Notes: generated by a model from the letters alone, not told the origin. Counted from the first letter of the stretch, positions 38,018 to 63,836 are shown. The stretch: DNA of 64,000 nt from an uncultured Cellvibrionaceae bacterium (GCA_964451365.1 CAYVIB010000030.1:4789-68788), one strand, 5' to 3'. Made by a program: numbers and translations.

Positions 38018-39721
38018 TTACTGGCTCGCAAGCACCTCTCCCTGCATAAGCTTTGGTGCTGCACGCCGTACATTGATTATCTTTCCCTGCTCCATCGTAA
38101 TTATCGTATCGGCAACATCAAAATAGCGGTCATCATGACTGATCACGATTACCACCTTATTCTTTTTCTTTAATTCCGGAAGAATGTCTTTATAAAAAAC
38201 ATTCTTGAATTCAGGATCCTGGTCCGCTGCCCATTCGTCAAAAAGGTATATTTCTTTATCTTCAAGAAAGGCGACCAACAAGGCCAAACGTTTTCTCTGT
38301 CCGTCCGAAAGAGACAACGTTGAAAACTTGTCTCGATCAAGCGTAACTTTTCCTGTCAAATGCAGCTTTTCCATGTAGCGTATCGCGGATTTTTCGATTT
38401 CTTCCGTCATTTCAATTAGCAGACGGTCAAAGAGATAGTAGTCCGTGTATATAGCGCTGATTTTCTGACGATAGCTGACAATATTGTCATTTCCCACAAC
38501 ACTGTTATCGAAAGCAATTTCTCCGCTTGAAGGCGTGTAATGAAGCGTCAATAGTTTGCTCAGTGTCGACTTCCCCGACCCATTCGCACCGACAATAAAA
38601 GTAATCTCTCCCCTTTTTATTTGTAAGTTCAGCGGGCCGACCTGGAAGCCGGCTTCGTCTGACGGCGATGGATAATTATATTGCACATTATCAAAGCGGA
38701 TGGAATGCCAGGCAGGAACCTCTGCCATGACGGGATTGATATCTTCTTCCGGTATTTTTCCTAATAAATTATTGAGCTTGCGGTAGGAAACAGACGCAAC
38801 GGCGATTTCAGGTATTGCGCTTAATAATATGGATATGGGACCCGCGACATATAGAAGCGTCATTACGACGCCGATCAGCTCCTCCTGGCTGATGGCATAG
38901 TAATTAACAAACACAAAGCTGACCGCGCCTATCACAAAAAAACTTAACAAGTCGCCAAAGCTAGATGATGCTCGCATTATGGTTTGCGCGGTTTTGTCCT
39001 GCTCAGCGATGCGGGACTCATTCTCAATGAGCATACGTTTAAAATAGAGCTCACGCTTTCCATGATCGAGTTTCAGTTCCTTTGCCCCGAAAATCAGTCC
39101 TTTCAGTGCCTCCTGCAACTGATCAAACCCTTCTCTTGTCTTATGTAGTATTTTTCTACCTATAGTCATCGGAACCTGATAACAAACCACTCCAAAAATT
39201 ATCGCCATCATGACAAGCTTGAACACGTCCGGATTCAAATACACCAGAAAAGTCAGCATCCCGACAACCGTGATGCCGTTGATCAGTAACGCGGGAACAG
39301 CCCTTCCGCCTGCTAAAATTCTTGGGACGTCAAGATTCAACGAAGCCACTATCTTTGAGGAGCCGATTCTTTCAATTGCTGAAATTGGTGCGGCGGATAT
39401 ACGACCATAGAACTCAGTCCGGATACCTCTCGCAACCTCAGTCGACACACGGGTCAGGATAACCTCCGAAGTTGTCCTCATAATCAGGATAAGTAGACAT
39501 AGGGCGATATAAAACAACGCCAGTTGGTAATGAGCCACCTCAAATGAAAGCAATGTTGCGACATCATCATTGATGGGCTCGAACGAAGAGTCCTGAGGGC
39601 GGATGCTGAGCAACACCAATGGGATAAGAGCGGAATAACAAACACCGGACAATCCGCCCAGCACTATCGAGATAAAAACGCGATTTGGTGCCCTGTGAGA
39701 GAAGGTACTGAATATGCTCAT
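38018..39721 (-). CDS. Fused permease-ATPase ABC exporter, SyrD/PvdE/YojI-like (cyclic-peptide exporter type)
   Basis: 567 aa with an N-terminal multi-TM domain. The C-terminal NBD has Walker A GANGSGKST, signature LSDGQRKR and the characteristic Walker B IYLFDEWAADQDPEF. It overlaps the acylase gene by 4 nt. Confidence 0.85.
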   Translation of the reverse strand: MSIFSTFSHRAPNRVFISIVLGGLSGVCYSALIPLVLLSIRPQDSSFEPINDDVATLLSFEVAHYQLALFYIALCLLILIMRTTSEVILTRVSTEVARGIRTEFYGRISAAPISAIERIGSSKIVASLNLDVPRILAGGRAVPALLINGITVVGMLTFLVYLNPDVFKLVMMAIIFGVVCYQVPMTIGRKILHKTREGFDQLQEALKGLIFGAKELKLDHGKRELYFKRMLIENESRIAEQDKTAQTIMRASSSFGDLLSFFVIGAVSFVFVNYYAISQEELIGVVMTLLYVAGPISILLSAIPEIAVASVSYRKLNNLLGKIPEEDINPVMAEVPAWHSIRFDNVQYNYPSPSDEAGFQVGPLNLQIKRGEITFIVGANGSGKSTLSKLLTLHYTPSSGEIAFDNSVVGNDNIVSYRQKISAIYTDYYLFDRLLIEMTEEIEKSAIRYMEKLHLTGKVTLDRDKFSTLSLSDGQRKRLALLVAFLEDKEIYLFDEWAADQDPEFKNVFYKDILPELKKKNKVVIVISHDDRYFDVADTIITMEQGKIINVRRAAPKLMQGEVLASQ

Positions 39722-42207
39722 TGTAGATTACCAGTTGATGCATTCGCCAATTCAGATGTACCAGGTGAAAACCAGGTCGGATCAAAATTCAGGTAGTGGA
39801 AATCCGAAAAATATTCCGTCATATCAGAATAATGAGGGCTCATTACTTGACCGGACTGCCCCGTTGAATTAACAAATAAATGCACGGGCGAATGATCCTT
39901 CATCTCAATAATCTGTCTAAAACCTGCCCCGAATACCTGGGAATATCCTTCCGAGCGATTAAAGATCGTACCCGCCACATTGACCGTGTTACTTGATCCC
40001 GCACTGCTGACGGATCGCTCGAACAACCGGCTGAGCATCCTAACCTGGCTGAAGGGCACATGCTGATAAACTGCTTTATTCGCCCGCCCCCAGGTCCACT
40101 CATCAATATCACTGCCGTAAAGCTTCGTCATCTCTTCGGAAACGGCATTAAAAGCACTTTCAATCATCGAACGACAGCTTTCCGTTACTTCAGTGGTGAC
40201 GTCATCACACCACTTTTCGTTGCTCCTGATGATTTCCGCAACCTTATCCGAGCTGATCGAAGCAATAACGGATTCCAGATACGGCGAGTGATCCTTCCGG
40301 TTCCAGTAGCTGCTCAGTTCATCGGTAAACAAGTTGGTTTTAAGGTTACGTAGTAATCCGTAGTAAATCGTGGCTCCGACACTGTTCATGGACGCTTTAC
40401 CATCCCACTTTCGCAACGTCTCAACCATGAATGGATCGGTGTCAAGAGGACCGATGTCTCTCACCACGTTCAGGAGACTGACGACGGATAAATCAAGCAC
40501 ATCCCCCTGTATTCGTTTCATATCTTCAGTGGTGAGTTTGTCTCCGCTTTGCACCGTCTTTTGTACAAGATGCGTAATTCTCTTCGCCCGTTGAGGTGGT
40601 GCGTAATTGCTCGATATAAAATAAGGGTAATCCGCATCAACATTTCGATTATTGGCATTCACCAGGAAACCGGATTCCGGATTAAAAACCTGCGGCATAC
40701 GATCAAAGGGAATATAACTTTCCCACTCGTATGATTTGTCTTTGCCGGACACTGGAACCAGACCATACCCAGCCCTCCTGACGGGAATTCTGCCAACACC
40801 GATGAGACCAATATTATTTCGTTTATCCGCGTACAGGATATTCAGCGGAGGGGCGATGTGGAACTCCAGGGCTTGCTTAAACTCGTTCCAATCAGCTGCA
40901 TAACCTAACCTATAAAACGATTCATATGACGTATCCTGGTCACTTAATCCCGTCCACTGTAGAGTCACCGGCTGATCCAACGAAGTTACGGTATCGCTGA
41001 TAACAGGACCATGGACTGAGTTACGTACCAGTATGGAAACAGGTTTAAGCGGTGAGCGCAGCGAGGATGGGAAGTCGGCCCTTACATTTATAAATTCGGT
41101 TCGCGTGCTGAAGGATTCGAACTCACCATCATATAAATATTTATTGGGATCCTCAGGGGCCGTCTGCTCGAGATAGAGATCCTGGACATCCGCCATCATG
41201 GCGGTACCTCCCCACGCGATATGTTGATTCCTTCCAAATATAATCACTGGCAGACCAACCAGACTCATGCCGGACGCATTGAGAGTAGCGCCTTTTTGGC
41301 TTACTGCGTACCAAAGCGATGGAATTTGCAGATCCAGGTGTGGGTCATTGGCCAGAATGGGAGCACCCGACTTCGTCAGGCTACCCGACACCACCCAGGC
41401 ATTACTTCCAGGATAAAAATTTTCGGCAACAGAGGTAGAGCCAAACATTTTTCCACTGGAAAACAAGGCGGACAATCCATCGAATGCAGGTGGATTGGCA
41501 TCACGGTCAACCAAATCACGAGGTAAATTATCCTCAAACAACGTGTTGAACTGCCTGTCCGAGAGATAGCGCAAACTAACAAAACGTTTTATTTCTTCTC
41601 GATAATTACCGCTAAGCGTTAATGCGAATACCTTTATCCAGGCAAGGGAGTCTTCTTTTTTCCACGGCTGAGGCTCTATGCCCAGTATGGCAAACTCTAT
41701 GGGAAGTCTTTGATTGGTATGAATCCACTCGTTAATACCCGCGGCATAAGCTTCTAGCGACGCTATTGCCGACGGACTCAAATAGTCAACGGATTTGGAT
41801 GCGGCTTCGTAGATTCCTAGCGTTCTTATCCATATATCCTGCTCCAGGGCGCTCCGACCGAGCACCTCCGCCAATGTTCCCTGGCAGGTTCGTCTCTGAA
41901 TTTCGAGCTGCCATAACCGATCCTGGGCATGGGCATATCCCATCGCGAAATAAACATCGATGTCTGAATCCGCTTTAAGGTAGGTAACTCCCATCGCGTC
42001 GCGTCTAATACTAATATTTTTCTCAGTGTTCTTTAAGAGGAACAAACCATCGCTATCACTGGGCAGGGGATCAAAAAGAAATATCTTGCATGCATACGCA
42101 ACACAAGCGATTGCCGGAAAAATGATAAAGACAATAAATCTCGGCAGGAGAACGAAGTTGGCAATCTTTAGCACAAGCGCAATTCCATTGTTGTTAGATG
42201 TAAACAA
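39718..42207 (-). CDS. Penicillin-amidase-family Ntn hydrolase (PvdQ / AHL-acylase-like)
   Basis: 829 aa with an N-terminal hydrophobic anchor and alpha-subunit motif YAHAQDRLWQLE. The predicted autoprocessing site is G-SNAWVVSG (Ser nucleophile). Length and layout are typical of the family. It is the first gene of the minus-strand operon. Confidence 0.85.
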   Translation of the reverse strand: MFTSNNNGIALVLKIANFVLLPRFIVFIIFPAIACVAYACKIFLFDPLPSDSDGLFLLKNTEKNISIRRDAMGVTYLKADSDIDVYFAMGYAHAQDRLWQLEIQRRTCQGTLAEVLGRSALEQDIWIRTLGIYEAASKSVDYLSPSAIASLEAYAAGINEWIHTNQRLPIEFAILGIEPQPWKKEDSLAWIKVFALTLSGNYREEIKRFVSLRYLSDRQFNTLFEDNLPRDLVDRDANPPAFDGLSALFSSGKMFGSTSVAENFYPGSNAWVVSGSLTKSGAPILANDPHLDLQIPSLWYAVSQKGATLNASGMSLVGLPVIIFGRNQHIAWGGTAMMADVQDLYLEQTAPEDPNKYLYDGEFESFSTRTEFINVRADFPSSLRSPLKPVSILVRNSVHGPVISDTVTSLDQPVTLQWTGLSDQDTSYESFYRLGYAADWNEFKQALEFHIAPPLNILYADKRNNIGLIGVGRIPVRRAGYGLVPVSGKDKSYEWESYIPFDRMPQVFNPESGFLVNANNRNVDADYPYFISSNYAPPQRAKRITHLVQKTVQSGDKLTTEDMKRIQGDVLDLSVVSLLNVVRDIGPLDTDPFMVETLRKWDGKASMNSVGATIYYGLLRNLKTNLFTDELSSYWNRKDHSPYLESVIASISSDKVAEIIRSNEKWCDDVTTEVTESCRSMIESAFNAVSEEMTKLYGSDIDEWTWGRANKAVYQHVPFSQVRMLSRLFERSVSSAGSSNTVNVAGTIFNRSEGYSQVFGAGFRQIIEMKDHSPVHLFVNSTGQSGQVMSPHYSDMTEYFSDFHYLNFDPTWFSPGTSELANASTGNLQ

Positions 42208-55487: not shown

Positions 55488-56318
55488 TCAGCAGCAACGC
55501 CTTCCTGGCATATAGATGGTTTGCAATTCTTGGGCACATTTCTTCGACCAGACGTTCAAAAGACAGGTTAGGAAGTTCGCTTCCCAAAACTTTAGTGATT
55601 GCTTCATAGGTATTTCGACTGGAAATTTCCCTGGCATGCGAACCCAGAAGTTCTTAGTGTTATGTGCGTGCGGGTTACTGTAGGGTATCTGGATAATGGC
55701 CGAGGCCATGGTATTGGCCGTATACATCCCCCCGCACGAACCCGCACCGGGAATCGCCGTCTCCTCGATCTGCTTGACCTCAATCAGATCCAGTTTGCCC
55801 TGCGCGTGAGCACCCACTGCCTCGAACACGGAAATAATGTCGGTGTGATTTTCGCCCGGCAAAATGGTCCCGCCGTAAACGAAGATAGCGGGCCGGTTCA
55901 GACGCGCCAGCCCCATCATGCAACCCGGCATGTTTTTATCGCAGCCACCAATGGCCACCAGTGCGTCAAAACCCTCGCACCCGGCCACCGTCTCGATGGA
56001 ATCGGCAATCACCTCGCGCGACACCAGCGAATACTTCATCCCCTCGGTGCCATTGGCGATGCCATCCGACACCGTGATGGTATTGAAGATCAGGGACTTG
56101 CCCCCGGCCGCATCGGCACCCGCCGCCGACTCTTCCGCCAGCCGGTTAATGTGCATGTTGCAGGGCGTGAGATTACTCCAGGTAGAAGCAATGCCCACCT
56201 GAGGCTTGCGAAAGTCCTCGTCGGTAAAACCCACCGCTCTCAACATGGCTCGGCTGGCAGACTTGCCAATGCCGTCTACTACCGGGGATGAATAACGGCG
56301 GCGCTTGTCTTTGCTCAT
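55488..56318 (-). pseudogene. ilvD: Dihydroxy-acid dehydratase, 5' fragment only (3'-truncated)
   Basis: The first ~205 aa are clearly IlvD (PCNMHI..., [25 protein letters not shown]). Similarity stops near 55690-55700 and is replaced by an unrelated 65-aa tail. Full-length IlvD is about 560-615 aa. Confidence 0.8.
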
Positions 56319-56912
56319 TGATAGCCTCTAATCGGGTTAGTTGGTGCCGTCAGAATTGCAGAATCATTACCGCTCAGCAACCCCATCATACCCAATCAAC
56401 CCAGTCCCTCAGCGATCTGCTGGATCTGAAGCACCTGTCGTACGATGATCGCACTCAAGCCGGCCATTCAGTTTGCATTGCCTGATAACCACTGGAGCTA
56501 ATGTGGGTGGAGCTAACGTGGGTGTCTGGGTAAGTGCCCCTTCGCAACAAGATAGATCGGTTAAAAAATAACTGGGAGAGGTGAGGCACGAAAATGCACG
56601 ACTTAAGCATGCCTTAGAAAAGGAAAGGGGTAAGGCTGAGCATTACCGGAAAAAGTGGATTAGTGCCAGAAGCGCTACCGGCAAAACTACAAATTGAAAA
56701 AGTTAGGCTAGCATGAAAACGCTGGCATGCAGGATACGGCTGAAAGAGGGCCTGCGGGACGGGCCTCACGCCCGGTACCCAGTAGAGTTAGAGTGCGTTT
56801 TCACCAATTTGAAAACTTATTAGTCGTTCTTCCGCCACTTCTTTCTGTGCCCACACAAGCAAAGAAGTTAAACACTTAATTGATAAATTTTAGTTTCCAC
56901 CCTTTTTCTTTT

Positions 56913-57953
56913 TTATTCTTTGCTATCCGCTGCTATGGGTGGAAGCTCCATTTCATGTTTGGACAAGATCACATCCAACTCATTAGCCTTTTCTGTTAGC
57001 CCGCTAAGTACGAGAGCTTTATTTTTTCGAGCATCAAAAATACAGGCAAAGCAGGCGTCTGTGTGTTGATTTCTATAGCCATTAGACTGTACAACCCCTT
57101 TAATTGCCCACTTTAAATTAGCGTTTTCTGAGTTGGTTGGCGCTAATACTTTTAGCTCCAAAATTGTTGTCACGGGGTTGGATCCTGTGGCTGATAATCT
57201 CACGATACGAATATCCATTCTTCCGCCAGGATTACCGATTTCCTCATCTACCACTATAGATCCAGTTCTCAGGAGAGCCTTAAAATGAATCAGAAGTCCT
57301 GATTGAATATGTAACTCTGGCAACTGGTGCTTTTTGAAACAAACGGACTTTGTATCCCACATAAGTCTTGCAATCGTAGCTCTATGCGTTTTCGTGCATT
57401 CGTCGTGGAACTCTTCGACGTACTTTTGAATGATCTCAGGATTTATTTCTTGTGTCGAATTATCGAAAGTCTTAGTGTATGGAGCCTCGCACCATTCGTC
57501 TATACGCTCGCCTTTACAGTGAATAAACATTCTTCTCTGAGCAAGCAAGATAACAACAAAAGTGCTGTTTTCGCTAAAATATTTCGAGACGAACCGGAGA
57601 GCATCATTGATGTCGCTAAAGCTTGGCACATATTCATAAATGATTTGCAGGTTTTCATTGCACACCGAAAGTCCGTCACCTAAACTCGTGCTGCTTCTGA
57701 AGAGTTTTTTTGGATCGCTGTTAGAGCTTGCAAAACCAGGATCTACTTTTGGTGATTCAGAATATAAGAGCACTAGCGCAGAATTGGGTTTAAGTGACTC
57801 GCAGTTCACCATATTTGATTGAATATCAAGCCAGCCACGGTAATACTCGATGCAAGACTGGATAAATCGGTCCTCAGGCGAACCCGAAATGCCAGGTAGC
57901 TCAAAGCTCAAAGTCTCGAGCTCTGATTGGCTAAAGGAGCTCGTAGTAGACAT
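56913..57953 (-). CDS. Predicted effector: unknown N-terminal domain + C-terminal PD-(D/E)xK nuclease-like core
   Basis: 346 aa. GRMDIRIV (D at about 57213) is followed 17 residues later by TTILELKVL (ExK, about 57146-57175), then VVQSNGY. The start overlaps the upstream stop (TAATG). Confidence 0.5.
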   Translation of the reverse strand: MSTTSSFSQSELETLSFELPGISGSPEDRFIQSCIEYYRGWLDIQSNMVNCESLKPNSALVLLYSESPKVDPGFASSNSDPKKLFRSSTSLGDGLSVCNENLQIIYEYVPSFSDINDALRFVSKYFSENSTFVVILLAQRRMFIHCKGERIDEWCEAPYTKTFDNSTQEINPEIIQKYVEEFHDECTKTHRATIARLMWDTKSVCFKKHQLPELHIQSGLLIHFKALLRTGSIVVDEEIGNPGGRMDIRIVRLSATGSNPVTTILELKVLAPTNSENANLKWAIKGVVQSNGYRNQHTDACFACIFDARKNKALVLSGLTEKANELDVILSKHEMELPPIAADSKE

Positions 57954-58645
57954 TAAGCGGACCTCCGCATAAGAAGATGATGATATGCCTTCAATATATC
58001 TTTAGGATTATAGTCTGCTTTTTTTCGTAAAAACTCGCCGATGTCATGCAATCCTGCTACAGTAGGCGATTCATCATCTGGATAATCTTGAATATATAAG
58101 CTTTTACTTGCGCGTTTTAGCGCTTGTTGATAACTAAGATCTAGCTCAAGAACTTTATCAAGCGTTTCGTTATTAGAGTGCAACGAGTTTTTGTCACTGA
58201 CTGTAGTATCCATTAGCGACGATATCCCCAAGCATAGATCAAGTAAAAAGCCGTATAATTTTTTCCCTGGGAGAGATTCGCGCAGTATTTGTGAAGCTGC
58301 CAGCCCATTCTTAGTGAGCTTAAACTCAGCCTCAAACTGAAGCGATTTAGATTTAATGTGCCCTTTATAATTCACTATTTCTACCAATCCAGAAAGCGCC
58401 AAGTTCCCAATTGCAATGTGCGCGGCACGATAGTATGGTCCATAAGATGTCCTTTGGGCTCTTTGTCTCAACGGTAAAATCCCGTAATATGGCGCGCTGG
58501 CAAACGATATGAATAGCAGCAGATGTAGTCTCTGACGATTTAATAGTTCAATTCCAGCCGCATTCGCCGCATTAACTATAAATAAAACCCATCTTATAAA
58601 TTGTAGAGATTCAAAATCACTTTTTGGAAGAAACTTTTTAGCCAT
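57953..58645 (-). CDS. Hypothetical protein, positional equivalent of an ABC-3C/Lamassu middle component
   Basis: 230 aa with no motif I recognise. It is translationally coupled on both sides (8-nt overlap upstream, 1-nt overlap downstream). The functional label rests on position only. Confidence 0.45.
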   Translation of the reverse strand: MAKKFLPKSDFESLQFIRWVLFIVNAANAAGIELLNRQRLHLLLFISFASAPYYGILPLRQRAQRTSYGPYYRAAHIAIGNLALSGLVEIVNYKGHIKSKSLQFEAEFKLTKNGLAASQILRESLPGKKLYGFLLDLCLGISSLMDTTVSDKNSLHSNNETLDKVLELDLSYQQALKRASKSLYIQDYPDDESPTVAGLHDIGEFLRKKADYNPKDILKAYHHLLMRRSA

Positions 58646-60641
58646 GCATATATCCTTCTATTTCATCAAACAACATGTCCTTTGCTTCTTTTCTGTTAAG
58701 AACTTTTGCTTGCGCTGTAAGCTTCATAAGATTAACGATATGCGGATCATCCTTACTTAATGTTCTATATATTTCTCCTTGATCGTTTATTAATCCAAGA
58801 AGGGCTGGAATCATTATGGTTCCGTTGAGATTTGATGTTGCAATCAGTTTCCGGCTTTGCCCTGCACCTTCGGGTGCAAAGGTTCTCATCAGAGTAGCTG
58901 CGCGTCGCATAAACCAGCTATCTAGACTGGCTTCCGGAGTTTCTACAATCATCATACAAGCACCACCGTCACTAATTAGGTCGAGCATTGTCATCCGAAA
59001 AGCTAGATCAAGAAATTCCTTTTGCGATTCAGAAACGCTATCTGGGGTTAATCGCTTTTGAATAGTTTTGTAAGTGTTTGAAGTCATTCCCACGTTAAAT
59101 GTGGGAATATTAACTTTGCCGGCCCCAGTTGCCAGTTTGAAAGGTGTTTTTCGGTCGAACGTGATTTCTACAGACTCTTGTAGAAACTCTTCAGCATAGT
59201 GCGACATTCGGTTTCGAATACTCTCCTTCTTCTTATCCATAGCCTCTTGCGCTTTGGTCATAAGCGTTCTATATCGCTCAGTTAGCATCTTTCTGTCCGC
59301 ATCCAATTTCCGGAGAGCGGCCTCCTCTCTATCAACTTCTGCTCTGAGTAGTGACTGGTCCGATAACCCCTCGGAGGGACGTTGCGATCTCAGCTTATCT
59401 AAATCGTAGAATATTCTAATTCTTTTTTCTGCTAAACCATTCAGTGCTTCACTTGATGCCCCGAGGCTGTCCTGGTTACTTTTAATCTTAACTTTCAAGT
59501 CAGCTATAGCTTGCTCGATATCCTTAATTTCTTGATAAAGCTTACTGACTTTAGATGCCGTTATGGGAGTCACCTTAGCATTCTTGGTTAAGTTTGAATT
59601 ACAAACAAAACACTTGCCCTTTCGAATGGATTTCCCTATTTCTGAAAACTCCTTCTTGCCGCGATTTCCACATACAAAGCATCCTACTCTTGAGCCCAAC
59701 CCTTGCATGAGGAATCGCAGCTTATCATCGAGCCCTGGAAGCGCTTGAGAGATGTAAGCTGCATCATCATGAGCAAACTGCTCTTCAAGGCTTGCTAGCT
59801 CTACTTCGGCTTCAGAAAGTTGATTTCCATATTCAACAGCTTCTCTTTGAAGGGCATGGAACTTGTCATACTCTAGGAGATATAAATGATTGGCTTCTTC
59901 ATATGTGGCCTCGGCTTCTTTGGTGAGTCGATCAAGCGTAGCAACCTCTATGTCATCCGCACTCTGTGGTTTTAGCCGCTCTTGTCGTTGCGTCTGCTGA
60001 TTTCTTCTGTTCCGGTAGTCTGTATCAGTGCGCTGAATAGAGGCAAAAGTTGCACTAAGCTCTTCAGCCAGGGATTCATCAAAAAACAACATTTTAAAAA
60101 ATTCGAATTGGGTTCCTGGTGTCCATAGGATGGGCAACCTTTCCTCAGTAAAAAACTGGAGATACCGCACAACCATGTGAAAGTCGTAAGGAGATGCTAG
60201 ACCTGACAGGTTTGCAAAGTTCTCAATTATTTCAACTTCACTACCAAATCGTATCTTCCGACCGTTGATGCTAACCGAAGTTGCCTTCAGCGATGCGAGA
60301 ATCCGTGTAACTGAAACAGTGTTGCGGCCAACTGTGAATTTCAAGGTGGCCGTAGAGCTGCTATCAATTTTTGGAACTCGTTTTGCAAAATAATCAAATT
60401 TTTTTGGCTCCACGAGTTCTCGCTTGCTCACTCGACTTATTTCAGCAGCAGCTTTTGGGCTGCTAGGTCCCAATAAAAGCCTCATAAGTAGATTTAGCAA
60501 AGTGGTTTTTCCGACCCCATTGATTCCGGCAAGAACGGTTACGCCATCCTGAAAATTGATCGTTAAACTGTTGCCATTAGTCCCCGGATATAACGAATAG
60601 TTTCTTATTGTTATCTGCTCTATAACCGGTAAGGAAATCAT
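58638..60641 (-). CDS. SMC/Rad50-like ABC ATPase with long coiled-coil insert and CxxC..CxxC element
   Basis: 667 aa with Walker A GINGVGKTT (about 60503-60530) and about 400 aa of charged heptad-like sequence. That sequence contains GCFVCGN-x17-KCFVCNS (59598-59684). C-terminal SESQKEF (signature-like) and MMIVETPEASLD (Walker B/D-loop) complete the head. An AAGGGGG RBS is present. Confidence 0.75.
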   Translation of the reverse strand: MISLPVIEQITIRNYSLYPGTNGNSLTINFQDGVTVLAGINGVGKTTLLNLLMRLLLGPSSPKAAAEISRVSKRELVEPKKFDYFAKRVPKIDSSSTATLKFTVGRNTVSVTRILASLKATSVSINGRKIRFGSEVEIIENFANLSGLASPYDFHMVVRYLQFFTEERLPILWTPGTQFEFFKMLFFDESLAEELSATFASIQRTDTDYRNRRNQQTQRQERLKPQSADDIEVATLDRLTKEAEATYEEANHLYLLEYDKFHALQREAVEYGNQLSEAEVELASLEEQFAHDDAAYISQALPGLDDKLRFLMQGLGSRVGCFVCGNRGKKEFSEIGKSIRKGKCFVCNSNLTKNAKVTPITASKVSKLYQEIKDIEQAIADLKVKIKSNQDSLGASSEALNGLAEKRIRIFYDLDKLRSQRPSEGLSDQSLLRAEVDREEAALRKLDADRKMLTERYRTLMTKAQEAMDKKKESIRNRMSHYAEEFLQESVEITFDRKTPFKLATGAGKVNIPTFNVGMTSNTYKTIQKRLTPDSVSESQKEFLDLAFRMTMLDLISDGGACMMIVETPEASLDSWFMRRAATLMRTFAPEGAGQSRKLIATSNLNGTIMIPALLGLINDQGEIYRTLSKDDPHIVNLMKLTAQAKVLNRKEAKDMLFDEIEGYMHG

Positions 60642-60674
60642 TGCCAGCCCCCTTGGCCAAAGTGCCTATCGAGA

Positions 60675-61025
60675 TTAAATTTTTCTGCTTTTTATTTTTT
60701 TTAATAGCCGTAAAGCTTCTACCAAGAAGTCTGCATCCTCCTGGGTTCCTTCCCAAACCTCAGCAAGCATGCCCTCCAGTTTTCGCTCTCTACGTTGTTG
60801 CTTTATCTCTCCGTCTTCAATCATTTTATTAAAGGAAATCTTTGCATCTCTACACATATCTCTAGCCGTCTTTGATCGACTTGTAAAGTTGCCAGCATAA
60901 ATACGCGCTATCCAGCTTTGCTTAACGCCGAATTTTTCGGCCACTTGAGCTTGACTTAAGTGTTTTCTTCTGAAATGGGCGGCCAGTTCACTGCCAATTT
61001 GCTTAGAAGTCAAACCTTGATTCAT
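60675..61025 (-). CDS. XRE-type helix-turn-helix protein (candidate controller)
   Basis: 116 aa. LSQAQVAEKFGVKQSWIARIYAG is a typical HTH. It ends 33 nt upstream of the ATPase and faces the methyltransferase gene. Confidence 0.7.
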   Translation of the reverse strand: MNQGLTSKQIGSELAAHFRRKHLSQAQVAEKFGVKQSWIARIYAGNFTSRSKTARDMCRDAKISFNKMIEDGEIKQQRRERKLEGMLAEVWEGTQEDADFLVEALRLLKKIKSRKI

Positions 61026-61116
61026 TTAAGCCTCATACGTATATATTGACTATAATATACGCATATGTATCATATGTAAAATTTTTATTCAATCGGATTG
61101 GGTGGGGAGTGGATTC
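61026..61116. promoter_or_regulatory. Divergent promoter/operator region between the HTH operon and the methyltransferase
   Basis: ATACGTAT palindrome (61035-61042). Inverted repeat CGTATAT (61038-61044) / ATATACG (61055-61061) encloses TTGACT and TATAAT. CATATG occurs twice (61062-61067 and 61071-61076). Confidence 0.5.
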
Positions 61117-62382
61117 ATGCAGACGGCTTTTGAGCGCTGGACACGCGGGAGACAGGTACATTCACTAGGAACTAACTTCGGAGCTGAACGGCTTCCATTC
61201 CAGTCATGGAGGCATTTTAAAGAGGCATTTGCTCCAGAGTTAATCGCAAGAGCTGTAAGCGAATCAAAGAGAAAAGTTAAACGTTGTATCGACCCTTTTG
61301 GGGGGTCTGGTACAACAGCTCTTGCTTGCCAATTTCTGGGTGTTAAACCAACTACGATAGAGGTTAATCCATATCTTGCCGATCTTATTGAAGCTAAGTT
61401 GACTCACTATGACTGTGTAGCATTAACCCAGGACTTTTCCTTCGTCTTAAGGAGCGCCAAGGCAGTGAGGAAACCCTTCCATTTAAGCCATTTGCCTGCC
61501 ACATTTGTAGAACCCGGCGTCAAAGGGCGTTGGGTGTTTCCTTATGAGGTGGCACAGCGTGTTGAGGCTTATAGAGTGGCTATATCGAAGCTGACGCAGC
61601 TTACTCATCAGCGTTTCTTTCGAGCATTACTGGGCGGGATAATAATTGACGCAAGCAATGTTTTTGTGAATGGAAAAGGACGTCGTTATCGGCAAAATTG
61701 GAAATGCCGACAGCAGTCCGCGAAGATAGTCGATGATTTATTCTGTGAGCGAGTTCAGCATGCATTATGTGAAATCGTTAGATATTCAAATCGGCCCGAG
61801 GAAGATTACCTCTTAATACATGGGGATGCACGGACAGCCTTAAAAAAGGCTCCTAAATCAGACTTGGCGGTGTTCTCACCACCCTATCCCAACTCCTTTG
61901 ACTATACAGACATATATAATGTTGAACTTTGGATGTTGGGTTATTTAGGTTCCTCTACGGATAATCAAGAATTACGCAGGTCAACACTTACCTCTCACGT
62001 GTCAATTAGCAGGGATTTTGGTCAAATGCCAGGAGGATCTCCAACATTAAAACGAATTTCAGATAAGCTCCACAGAGTAAAAACGGAATTATGGAATCCA
62101 TGGATACCATCCATGGTGGATGGCTATTTCGCGGATATGCTCCACGTTTTTTCTTGCTTGCAGAGTAATCTTAAGTCTAAGGGAGAAGTTTGGGCGGTGG
62201 TTGGGGATAGTTTGTATGCGGGTATCCATGTTCCTGTGGCAAAAATCCTAGGAGAGCTATGCGTGTTCAACGGATATGAGCTAGTTGGGATGGAATCGTT
62301 CAGGTCAATGCGAGCTTCAGCTCAGCAAGGTGGTAAACACAAACTCGAAGAGACTCTCATTGTTCTCCGGAAGAAGCTTTAG
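61117..62382 (+). CDS. DNA methyltransferase (amino-MTase, SPPY motif IV; N4-C or N6-A)
   Basis: Motif I is IDPFGGSGTTALACQFLG, followed about 190 aa later by motif IV AVFSPPYPNSFDY. I prefer ATG 61117 (GGGGAG upstream) over the GTG at 61102. Confidence 0.8.
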   Translation: MQTAFERWTRGRQVHSLGTNFGAERLPFQSWRHFKEAFAPELIARAVSESKRKVKRCIDPFGGSGTTALACQFLGVKPTTIEVNPYLADLIEAKLTHYDCVALTQDFSFVLRSAKAVRKPFHLSHLPATFVEPGVKGRWVFPYEVAQRVEAYRVAISKLTQLTHQRFFRALLGGIIIDASNVFVNGKGRRYRQNWKCRQQSAKIVDDLFCERVQHALCEIVRYSNRPEEDYLLIHGDARTALKKAPKSDLAVFSPPYPNSFDYTDIYNVELWMLGYLGSSTDNQELRRSTLTSHVSISRDFGQMPGGSPTLKRISDKLHRVKTELWNPWIPSMVDGYFADMLHVFSCLQSNLKSKGEVWAVVGDSLYAGIHVPVAKILGELCVFNGYELVGMESFRSMRASAQQGGKHKLEETLIVLRKKL

Positions 62383-62420: not shown

Positions 62421-62774
62421 CTAGTTTGACATAGTGGACACACATACTGCTCTACAGACCCTGCGGTTTCGCCTTTTGGACACTCGGTGGTGTGTATATA
62501 TGTTACCGTCCGCACAATAATATGTTAATTGAAAAACGTCGTATTCATGTGTCACCTCTTCGTAAAGAGGGTTAGCAAGCGGGTATTCATGGAATAGTAT
62601 GTACAACAACTCTTGGCTATAAACTTCATACAATATTCTGCAAAAATTCTCTGAAAAGCCCAACTTTCCGAGCGTCTCCAGTGCTTCATAAAAATCATCA
62701 GGATCGCGACCGACGTTCTCAGGCGCGACAACCAAATCCAAACTAAGCACGTCAAACCCAATCTCAGCCGCCAT
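62421..62774 (-). CDS. Hypothetical protein (117 aa)
   Basis: ORF only, with no recognisable motif. It is acidic at the N-terminus and basic/Cys-containing at the C-terminus. Confidence 0.3.
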   Translation of the reverse strand: MAAEIGFDVLSLDLVVAPENVGRDPDDFYEALETLGKLGFSENFCRILYEVYSQELLYILFHEYPLANPLYEEVTHEYDVFQLTYYCADGNIYTHHRVSKRRNRRVCRAVCVSTMSN

Positions 62775-63002: not shown

Positions 63003-63836
63003 CTACCGCCCTCTCTGTATACAGTCTTGAATGTACCTAAAAACGGTATACATCGCGTTAACAATGGCAGTTGCTTCGGGGACATCTAGCAAGTCATTCA
63101 CATGTGCTAGACTCGCCTTATTTCTAAGTGTAGAAAAGGCGTCAATTGAAGCGGCAAAAGAATTAAGGACTCTGGTAACTTCCTCAGCTCTATGACCCGA
63201 CGCTTGCAATGCCGGATGAAACTGTCGAAGTTGTTTGAACGCTTTGGATGCAGTGGGGTCGTTGGGTAGATCAATTTGGTTGTCGGTACAAACTTGCATC
63301 AAATATCCGTGAAGAGCAGTATGCGCACGATCAATTGCGCTTGAAGAGTCCACCGTGCCTATTAAAGCCTTCGCGTCTCCCAAAGCTCTCATCACCGAAG
63401 CCGAAATAGATTCACTAAATTCTGGCGCAGCAACACTGCCTGCTGTTTGAATTAGCCGACCATCAACAATTTGATAATGATCTTGATTCTTAAGCAGAAT
63501 CTGATTGATATGCTGTACCGTTGGTACAGTAGCGCCACTATGCTCCAGCTCCTCTAAAGCCTCATAAACAGCAGCTATAAAATTTGGAGCGTCCTCTGCT
63601 GCATTCTGAGCCTGGCTAAACATATCAGACTCGGCCCAGTCAAGCGAAGAGCTACGGGCGTAATAATCACCAGAAACTTTGCAAAAGTGCTGTTTAAATA
63701 CTTCAATTATCCGCTGTCTATTCATTGGCCCCGACACTCTTCTGATCAACAAAATAAAATCATCTACTGACTGATCACTGAGCGGTGTCGTTGCGCCCAT
63801 GGGAAACCTAAGTTCACTTGTCATTTGAAGCGGCAT
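63003..63836 (-). CDS. Abi_C / HEPN-domain abortive-infection-like protein
   Basis: 277 aa. The C-terminal STLRNKASLAH fits the HEPN Rx4-6H motif as it appears in Abi_C-type proteins (LRNK..aH). An upstream helix AIDRAHTALHGYL is present. Confidence 0.6.
   Translation of the reverse strand: MPLQMTSELRFPMGATTPLSDQSVDDFILLIRRVSGPMNRQRIIEVFKQHFCKVSGDYYARSSSLDWAESDMFSQAQNAAEDAPNFIAAVYEALEELEHSGATVPTVQHINQILLKNQDHYQIVDGRLIQTAGSVAAPEFSESISASVMRALGDAKALIGTVDSSSAIDRAHTALHGYLMQVCTDNQIDLPNDPTASKAFKQLRQFHPALQASGHRAEEVTRVLNSFAASIDAFSTLRNKASLAHVNDLLDVPEATAIVNAMYTVFRYIQDCIQRGR

Follow-up and report, generated by a model that had tools for sequence, protein, structure and literature searches.

A conserved module linking a DNA methyltransferase to a predicted SMC/Rad50-like ATPase and a nuclease, most likely an ATP-driven restriction-modification defence

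A 64,000-nt stretch of DNA from an uncultured Cellvibrionaceae bacterium (GCA_964451365.1 CAYVIB010000030.1:4789-68788; hereafter the window, to whose positions all coordinates refer) contains a DNA methyltransferase gene that stands back to back with a minus-strand operon. The first gene of this operon specifies a small helix-turn-helix (HTH) protein, and those that follow specify a predicted coiled-coil ABC ATPase, a 230-aa protein, here called the middle protein, and a 346-aa nuclease; these last three are referred to below as the trio. The question raised by the locus is whether the methyltransferase and the trio are chance neighbours or parts of one system, and, if they are one system, of which kind. 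A first-pass annotation, made from the sequence alone, had suggested an undescribed hybrid in which a Lamassu/ABC-3C-like trio, placed behind a controller-like HTH, takes over the restriction side of a restriction-modification (R-M) system. The results presented here establish that the four genes are one conserved module and indicate that this module, with the HTH as an optional addition, is probably an R-M-like defence driven by ATP.

Linkage of the methyltransferase with the trio

The locus was surveyed from both sides. The search anchored on the ATPase was made with one genome per species and yielded 46 true loci, the neighbours of which were assigned by iterated profiles; the search anchored on the methyltransferase was made in metagenomes and returned 395 relatives, the best 80 of which (49-63% identical) were examined. 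The ATPase-anchored loci are found in Pseudomonadota, Acidobacteriota, Actinomycetota, Verrucomicrobiota and Desulfovibrio, and represent at least five phyla. The middle protein and the nuclease adjoin the ATPase in 45 of the 46, and a methyltransferase gene lies within a few kb of it in 44; the exceptions are L033, where the contig ends, and L020, in which the ATPase is 5′-truncated and no methyltransferase occurs within 10 kb. Viewed from the methyltransferase, 70 of the 72 evaluable metagenome loci have at least one trio gene next to it and 49 show all three, while L138 and L081 possess the methyltransferase only. The four genes are found together in more than 120 independent loci. In every locus examined the trio has the order ATPase-middle-nuclease, and its nuclease is accompanied by both other members; a search of the locus neighbourhoods for further gene families recurring with the module revealed none. 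The methyltransferase and the trio constitute one conserved module whose two-way linkage is obligate. A lack of co-occurrence in other genomes had been set beforehand as an observation that would overturn the first-pass proposal; co-occurrence was found in both directions.

It might still be argued that an orphan Type II methyltransferase, or one with a partner elsewhere, has merely landed, within a defence island, next to an SMC-like system with which it has no connection. Defence genes do cluster, an Abi_C/AbiJ-like gene is close by, and PADLOC sees only the methyltransferase as an R-M component. Against such a coincidence stand the two-way linkage across phyla and the frequency with which methyltransferase and trio have overlapping 3′ ends or overlapping open reading frames (ORFs). 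Furthermore, no alternative restriction gene recurs nearby, and the loci are not near-identical copies of one mobile element, the methyltransferase identities being 34%-63%. We consider a chance association extremely improbable.

Loci that retain only the methyltransferase are tolerated, whereas an intact trio without a methyltransferase is absent from the loci surveyed. This asymmetry, which is a classic R-M signature, is the one expected if the trio is lethal in the absence of the mark. The rates of change are also R-M-like: over 77 complete loci the mean pairwise identity declines from 46% for the methyltransferase through 31% for the ATPase and 27% for the middle protein to 22% for the nuclease. 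The identity matrices correlate at r=0.87-0.91 among the trio and at 0.70-0.73 between the trio and the methyltransferase; taken with the overlaps of start and stop codons described below, these values reveal that the trio co-evolves tightly and behaves as one unit.

The relative orientation of the genes was compared in 83 loci, in 73 of which the trio and the methyltransferase converge, while they diverge in seven and are co-directional in three. The first-pass annotation had likened the locus to the classic arrangement in which a methyltransferase gene faces away from a controller gene and its restriction operon; this layout is present in the window but is a minority one, being confined to the seven divergent loci. 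Overlap of the methyltransferase ORF with the start of an ATPase gene on the same strand is seen in L006 and L011. The module is carried by one of 2.9 million viral contigs (L146), on which all four genes are co-directional and the methyltransferase comes last. Two complete trios are found beside a single methyltransferase in L001, L002, L008, L012 and L045, the methyltransferase of L001 being placed between its two trios. The paired trios exhibit approximately 30% identity between their ATPases, approximately 25% between their middle proteins, and 22-30% over the aligned parts of their nucleases.

These arrangements bear upon a variant of the R-M model in which the proteins form a Type III-like holoenzyme, with the methyltransferase as recognition subunit, the SMC-like ATPase in place of the Res/HsdR helicase motor, and a separate nuclease. 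The methyltransferase is indeed better conserved than any trio protein, and its linkage to the trio is obligatory; it is common to two divergent trios in the five loci just mentioned; its ORF runs into that of the ATPase in L006 and L011, and L146 has the four genes in one direction; and no trio protein possesses an obvious variable target-recognition domain. On the other hand, the prevalence of convergent loci indicates that the methyltransferase is transcribed separately, as is typical of independent Type II pairs, its correlation with the trio (r ~0.7) is lower than that within the trio (~0.9), and the nuclease-family members listed, which are all of 456 aa or less, include no methyltransferase fusion. 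A Type III-like holoenzyme is an unlikely arrangement, albeit a credible one.

Traces of mobility and decay are visible at several loci. TniB and TniQ are encoded directly beside the orphan methyltransferase of L081 (Pfam 3.5e-71 and 8e-32), and homologues of these two proteins occur near the module in four to five loci; transposons may thus carry the methyltransferase, or the module in its entirety, as cargo. All four genes are fragmented in L009, the ATPase is split in L040, and in L046 the ATPase and middle protein are fragmented with the nuclease and methyltransferase intact. The truncated L020 is a further decayed copy.

The gene products and the control region

The five ORFs, together with the overlaps, gaps and motifs quoted for them in the first-pass annotation, were re-read and all lie at the positions claimed. 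Within the operon the HTH and ATPase genes are 33 nt apart, the ATPase and middle-protein genes share an 8-nt overlap (ATGGCTAA), and the stop codon of the middle protein and the start codon of the nuclease overlap as TAATG, all three junctions having been read directly from the sequence.

The methyltransferase gene (61117-62382, plus strand) specifies 421 aa from an ATG at 61117, which has GGGGAG 8 nt upstream and agrees with the start of the L010 homologue, a protein that likewise begins MQAAFERW; an alternative GTG at 61102 would give 426 aa. The length and the 91-nt gap to the HTH gene noted earlier correspond to the ATG. PADLOC model MTase_II (PDLC03224) matches the protein at full length (E=3.7e-43). 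Pfam N6_N4_Mtase is matched above cutoff, with residues 37-96 placed against that C-terminal portion of the model which contains motif I, and in a PDB profile search M.MboIIA, DpnA and other beta-class enzymes aligned with the same segment through their C-terminal ends, from which it appears that the order of the motifs is permuted. AdoMet motif I (DPFGGSGTT, near the N-terminus) and catalytic motif IV (SPPYPNSFDY, mid-protein) are invariant across loci, while residues 101-160, 201-240 and 301-360 are variable segments; the SPPY represents residues 259-262 in the GTG-numbered protein. On the strength of these matches the protein is a DNA amino-methyltransferase, with a predicted specificity for the N4 position of cytosine or the N6 position of adenine. 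The sequence SPPY is typical of N4-cytosine enzymes.

The nuclease is the product of the last gene of the operon (56913-57953, minus strand). Direct scans of PADLOC, Pfam and NCBIfam gave no family match for it, no REase_II model was matched in PADLOC, and sequence and profile searches of the PDB with its family produced no meaningful relatives. An alignment of 65 diverse representatives, some of them 17% identical, nevertheless reveals that W199, E213, R245, D247, E266, K268 and Q289 are invariant; D247, E266 and K268 are retained in 72-73 of the 77 complete loci, and the catalytic residues are the most conserved positions across the family. The protein consists of an N-terminal alpha/beta domain (approximately residues 1-200) and, separate from it, a C-terminal PD-(D/E)xK core (approximately 210-335). 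In the AlphaFold2 model (mean predicted local distance difference test, pLDDT, 81.5) the invariant residues are carried by an alpha-beta-beta-beta-alpha-beta succession over residues 212-307, and scans of the family member by member yielded a single family, Pfam PDDEXK_9, which 48 of the 65 match. With the restriction-type Foldseek matches discussed below, these findings identify the 346-aa protein as a PD-(D/E)xK nuclease, as had been proposed from its D...ELK motif. A match of the N-terminal domain to cofilin (E=0.09) was marginal and was taken as chance. At E ≤ 1e-3 the family comprises 453 clusters (50% identity) among 1.84 billion representatives, and is widespread yet rare.

In five loci of Sphingomonas type (L019, L025, L027, L028 and L044) the nuclease homologue is approximately 300-315 aa long and has lost the PD-(D/E)xK catalytic residues. 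Four of the five have a gene for a KAP-family P-loop NTPase of approximately 510 aa (Pfam 2.4e-25) between the nuclease homologue and the methyltransferase, and the combination of this NTPase with a degenerate nuclease may represent an effector swap.

The ATPase gene (58638-60641, minus strand) specifies 667 aa. Its product matches Pfam AAA_23 above cutoff, and an alignment with SMC_N covers residues 7-586. The motif GINGVGKTT begins at residue 39 and constitutes the Walker A (39-47), SESQKEF begins at 537 and includes a signature-like SESQK (537-541), and MMIVETPEASLD begins at 563; residues 567-574 (ETPEASLD) constitute the Walker B/D-loop. The protein has two helical arms, at 191-310 and 353-500, with 3-4% proline plus glycine and 33-35% charged residues; the Gly/Cys-rich apex between them (311-352) possesses CFVC at 321 and again at 344, and the presence of two CxxC pairs in each chain suggests an intramolecular zinc site. 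The four apex cysteines, the Walker A, the SxSQ signature and the PE..SLD Walker B/D-loop are kept in at least 95% of the 77 loci. Family matches, motifs and helical arms agree, and the earlier assignment to the split-head coiled-coil ABC ATPases (SMC/Rad50/LmuB-like) is upheld by the sequence. Two features are unusual: the Walker B/D-loop is ETPEASLD in place of the usual DEPTxxLD of Rad50/SMC, and where the H-loop histidine is expected (602-608) there is a conserved TSN, N604 being kept in at least 95% of loci. The NCBIfam Rad50 models are the top matches in that collection, far below threshold, and a PDB profile search with the family yielded no sequence relatives.

The pairing of such an ATPase with a nuclease could also be taken for a housekeeping or repair function, in which an SbcCD/Rad50-Mre11-like machine processes DNA ends and the methyltransferase is an epigenetic regulator without a role in defence. 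The cysteine apex on a coiled-coil ABC ATPase, the Rad50 matches and the presence of a nuclease partner are all features that the module shares with SbcCD/Rad50-Mre11. However, the nuclease belongs to the PD-(D/E)xK class and not to the phosphoesterases of Mre11/SbcD type, the ATPase has a far shorter coiled coil than that of SbcCD/Rad50, and the genes lie, with a methyltransferase, in a mobile island. The GC content of this island is 42-45% from approximately position 56500 to the end of the window, as compared to approximately 55% in the flanking genome. A patchy distribution shaped by horizontal transfer, the small size of the family (the 453 clusters mentioned above), the transposon neighbours of some related loci, and the pseudogenised copies L009, L040 and L046 likewise speak against housekeeping, and we judge a repair role to be very improbable.

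The middle-protein gene (57953-58645, minus strand) gave no PADLOC, Pfam or NCBIfam family in direct scans, and sequence and profile searches of the PDB with its family found no meaningful relatives. Its AlphaFold2 model (pLDDT 87.1) consists of an N-terminal winged-helix-like domain, with the succession helix-helix-hairpin-helix-hairpin, followed by a helical C-terminal domain. The Pfam winged-helix model TFIIF_beta, the one Pfam family to which members correspond, is weakly matched by 14 of 31 members of the family, and the top Foldseek match, a weak one, is DarTG (7yk3_B). On this model, the 230-aa product combines a winged helix with a C-terminal part made of helices.

The HTH gene (60675-61025, minus strand; 116 aa, Xre-type) matches its nearest families below their curated cutoffs (Pfam HTH_31, E=1.2e-4; PADLOC PDC-M69A, 8e-5; NCBIfam RstR-like, 4.7e-4), and its product shows no sequence similarity to solved C-proteins. 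A homologue is present in 24 of 79 evaluable loci (approximately 30%) and stands head-to-head with the methyltransferase in all of them, irrespective of gene arrangement; this constancy indicates that its chief association is with the promoter of the methyltransferase. In loci of the window type, and only there, it also heads the restriction operon. The description of this protein as controller-like, advanced from the layout, agrees with its position at the head of the operon, facing the methyltransferase across a spacer with a repeated box; the protein is lacking from approximately 70% of loci, and it is best regarded as a candidate controller or repressor.

Within the 6.5-kb region, the two sites most like sigma-70 promoters lie in the spacer itself (61026-61116, 91 nt), where they overlap and face outward (61046-61073 on the plus strand and 61080-61052 on the minus strand), together with an inverted repeat, ATACGTATAT/ATATACGCAT, at 61035-61064. 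The corresponding spacers of L066, L067, L068 and L070 each contain two copies of the same box (approximately 14 nt, AATATACGCATATT), and L010 has a variant of it; in the window the repeated palindromic box overlaps the promoter-like sites. Because the box is conserved across spacers it is a candidate for a real operator, to which the HTH presumably binds.

Beyond the methyltransferase, the low-GC island contains a 117-aa ORF (62421-62774, minus strand) with no family match, and a gene for a 277-aa protein (63003-63836, minus strand) with a match to Pfam Abi_C (4e-14) and a weak one to PADLOC AbiJ (1e-6). Since these two share the island with the module, the locus looks like a small defence island that extends past the end of the window. 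At the boundary between high and low GC there is a dihydroxy-acid dehydratase gene in truncated form (55488-56318, minus strand); ILVD_EDD_N is matched over approximately the first 170 of 316 model positions, after which the frame diverges, and the fragment may be a remnant of the insertion of the island. A large part of the remaining window (731-42207, minus strand) is occupied by a non-ribosomal peptide synthetase cluster with ORFs of up to 4768 aa and Condensation, AMP-binding and PP-binding modules, followed by an ABC exporter (38018-39721) and an acylase of the penicillin-amidase family (39718-42207). It resembles a pyoverdine-type siderophore locus and has no relation to the module.

Comparison with described systems

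In design the trio is closest to Lamassu/ABC-3C, where a short coiled-coil SMC/Rad50-like ATPase likewise co-evolves with a small DNA-binding middle protein and a nuclease. The best PADLOC family for the window ATPase is LmuB; the match, which is collinear, is weak (54 bits, E=3.9e-15) and mainly to the coiled coil. Each of the 19 ATPase family members likewise has an LmuB model as its best PADLOC match (best E=3e-17), and the same family matches PbeC, mad3, AriA and PtuA at similar levels, PbeC being weakly matched by all 19 (best 8e-9). Neither partner protein follows: LmuC is matched by 0 of 31 middle-protein family members in PADLOC at E up to 1, and LmuA by 0 of 25 nuclease family members in PADLOC, with no relevant Pfam match among 65. 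The Lamassu operon has the order lmuA-lmuC-lmuB and the effector domain is N-terminal in LmuA (PMC12663957), whereas here the order is ATPase-middle-nuclease, the nuclease domain is C-terminal, and a methyltransferase is linked to the trio. LmuC models resemble HTH transcription factors (PMC12663957), and the agreement of the middle protein with LmuC is limited to this general fold class. The suggestion that the trio is Lamassu/ABC-3C-like therefore holds for its design only; it is not a demonstrable member of Lamassu/ABC-3C. Matches of the ATPase to models from MADS, Pbe/Dnd, Septu, Gabija and PARIS were found to be generic, involving the N-terminal P-loop or the coiled coil without any match of a partner protein, and were rejected.

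The resemblance to Lamassu raises the possibility of abortive infection, with methylation as a safety catch: the ATPase and the middle protein would be a sensor of phage DNA ends or replication structures and, once triggered, would free the nuclease to kill the cell. The consistent LmuB matches, the similar layout of ATPase, middle protein and effector, and the parallel between the winged helix and the HTH-like LmuC are in keeping with this. The lack of LmuA and LmuC homology and the reversal of both gene order and effector domain order are not, nor is a methylase mentioned in the Lamassu accounts PMC12663957 and PMC10586767. Moreover, a protective mark on host DNA is of no benefit to an abortive system whose action destroys that DNA, and the finding that methyltransferases may stand alone, but intact trios in the loci surveyed do not, suits direct restriction. 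A methylation-gated abortive mechanism of Lamassu style is possible, less economical than the R-M reading and, in our opinion, decidedly unlikely.

Conceptually, the nearest prior art is the group of CxC-clade ABC ATPases and PbeABCD (Krishnan et al. 2020), which, as summarised in PMC10853773, combine a cysteine Zn-hook apex with a DNA-binding partner and a nuclease; according to the same summary, cytosine methylases, some of them circularly permuted N4 enzymes, are coupled to a subset of these systems, which was read as R-M-like. The module described here likewise brings together an ABC ATPase whose coiled coil bears apical cysteines, a predicted DNA-binding partner, a nuclease and a coupled methylase. 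It differs in that the partner is a winged-helix protein and not the obligatory DndE/PbeD with two ribbon-helix-helix domains, the nuclease is a stand-alone PD-(D/E)xK protein in place of HKD plus a superfamily 2 (SF2) helicase (PbeA), and the apex has two CxxC pairs as compared to CxC. Their coiled coil is approximately 400 residues, while the helical arms here are approximately 120-150 residues each. In PADLOC the Pbe/Dnd models are unmatched by the middle-protein and nuclease families, and no further small gene recurs with the module. The novelty claimed in the first-pass annotation is thus reduced: no name was found for the module, but the coupling of an ABC ATPase to a methylase has a precedent in the CxC-clade/PbeC systems (PMC10853773).

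With Type II R-M systems possessing a C protein the module shares a methyltransferase with intact motifs I and IV paired with a PD-(D/E)xK nuclease, an HTH gene that, in the window, lies first in the restriction operon, with repeated palindromic boxes in the spacer between it and the divergent methyltransferase gene, and the occurrence of methyltransferases, but not of intact restriction genes, on their own. In contrast to Type II enzymes, the nuclease is not stand-alone but is translationally coupled to, and always found with, the ATPase and the middle protein, and the HTH is tied to the 5′ end of the methyltransferase in a minority of loci and not to the restriction operon.

Self-marking by a methyltransferase combined with an NTP-driven restriction machine is a property shared with Types I and III, BREX, DISARM, MADS and Hma. 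Unlike the SF2 helicase or AAA+ motors, however, the motor here is a coiled-coil ABC ATPase, which is the sole NTPase. MADS (mad1-mad8) also has an ABC-type ATPase (mad3) and a methyltransferase (mad2), to which the ATPase and methyltransferase gave weak matches (5.8e-7 and 1.5e-3, respectively), but mad2 and mad3 are the only ones of the eight profiles matched, none being matched by the middle protein or the nuclease, and the module here has four core genes. Scans of the window and the locus neighbourhoods detected no PglZ, BrxC, DrmA or helicase genes, and no helicase gene recurs in the neighbourhoods.

Predicted mechanism and significance

We propose that the SPPY methyltransferase marks, and would thereby protect, host DNA, and that the three translationally coupled proteins would assemble into one restriction complex. 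This would consist of a dimeric Rad50/LmuB-like ABC ATPase joined at its zinc-binding coiled-coil apex, a winged-helix DNA-binding subunit and the PD-(D/E)xK nuclease; it would engage or scan DNA using ATP and cut DNA that lacks the mark, cleavage being presumably dependent on ATP. The winged-helix protein, the N-terminal domain of the nuclease and the methyltransferase itself are candidates for the reader of the site. In loci such as that of the window, the HTH would bind the palindromic box and balance expression of the methyltransferase against that of the restriction operon in a controller-like manner. The chemistry needed for these steps is intact, insofar as the catalytic residues of the nuclease, the motifs of the ATPase, and motifs I and IV of the methyltransferase are all conserved. 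The five loci in which two divergent trios accompany one methyltransferase are in keeping with a shared mark. It is plausible, though we would stop short of calling it probable, that the module represents a distinct and as yet unnamed class of ATP-dependent R-M systems, in which an SMC/Rad50-like complex couples DNA engagement to methylation-sensitive cleavage and one methyltransferase could serve two divergent trios.

Several observations weigh against the R-M reading. The structural relatives of the nuclease are of restriction type (MspJI, CinB/CidB, AspBHI, PaqCI and BstEII are the top Foldseek PDB matches), but they are weak (E ≥ 1.5e-3), and the same applies to the PadR and RTP winged-helix matches of the middle protein, all of which are weak (E ≥ 1.5e-3). 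The linkage seen in metagenomes was counted among the best-matching relatives of the methyltransferase. The segment SNVxVxGKGRRYRxNW, situated between motifs I and IV at methyltransferase residues 181-200 (61642-61701), is near-invariant across phyla, where a variable target-recognition region would be expected; such constancy would be atypical of a specificity that diversifies in the manner of classical Type II systems, and hints at a conserved specificity or a protein-protein interface. Finally, since the five Sphingomonas-type loci keep the module without the catalytic residues, cleavage by the nuclease subunit is not universal.

PADLOC v2, Pfam (2025) and NCBIfam (2026) contain no model for the nuclease or the middle protein, both of which are labeled hypothetical in the source databases; two large plasmid or chromid records among the matches carry no annotation at all. 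As these collections recognize the methyltransferase only, genomes that bear the module are scored as possessing an orphan methylase, an annotation gap that concerns a module present in at least five phyla. No published name for it was found; an earlier in silico description is possible, Krishnan et al. 2020 being the likeliest place. Taken together, the module is real and widely conserved, and is most likely an uncatalogued ATP-driven restriction-modification defence.

SMC-like immune systems such as Wadjet and Lamassu tell foreign DNA by its shape, ends or replication structures, and how they spare the chromosome is still debated. If the proposed mechanism is true, the module would be the first SMC-like immune complex with an epigenetic rule for self and non-self in place of DNA shape, ends or topology, and would provide a simple model for self-recognition that can be switched by methylation. 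It would also add a type of motor to the R-M repertoire, beside the SF2 helicases of Types I and III.

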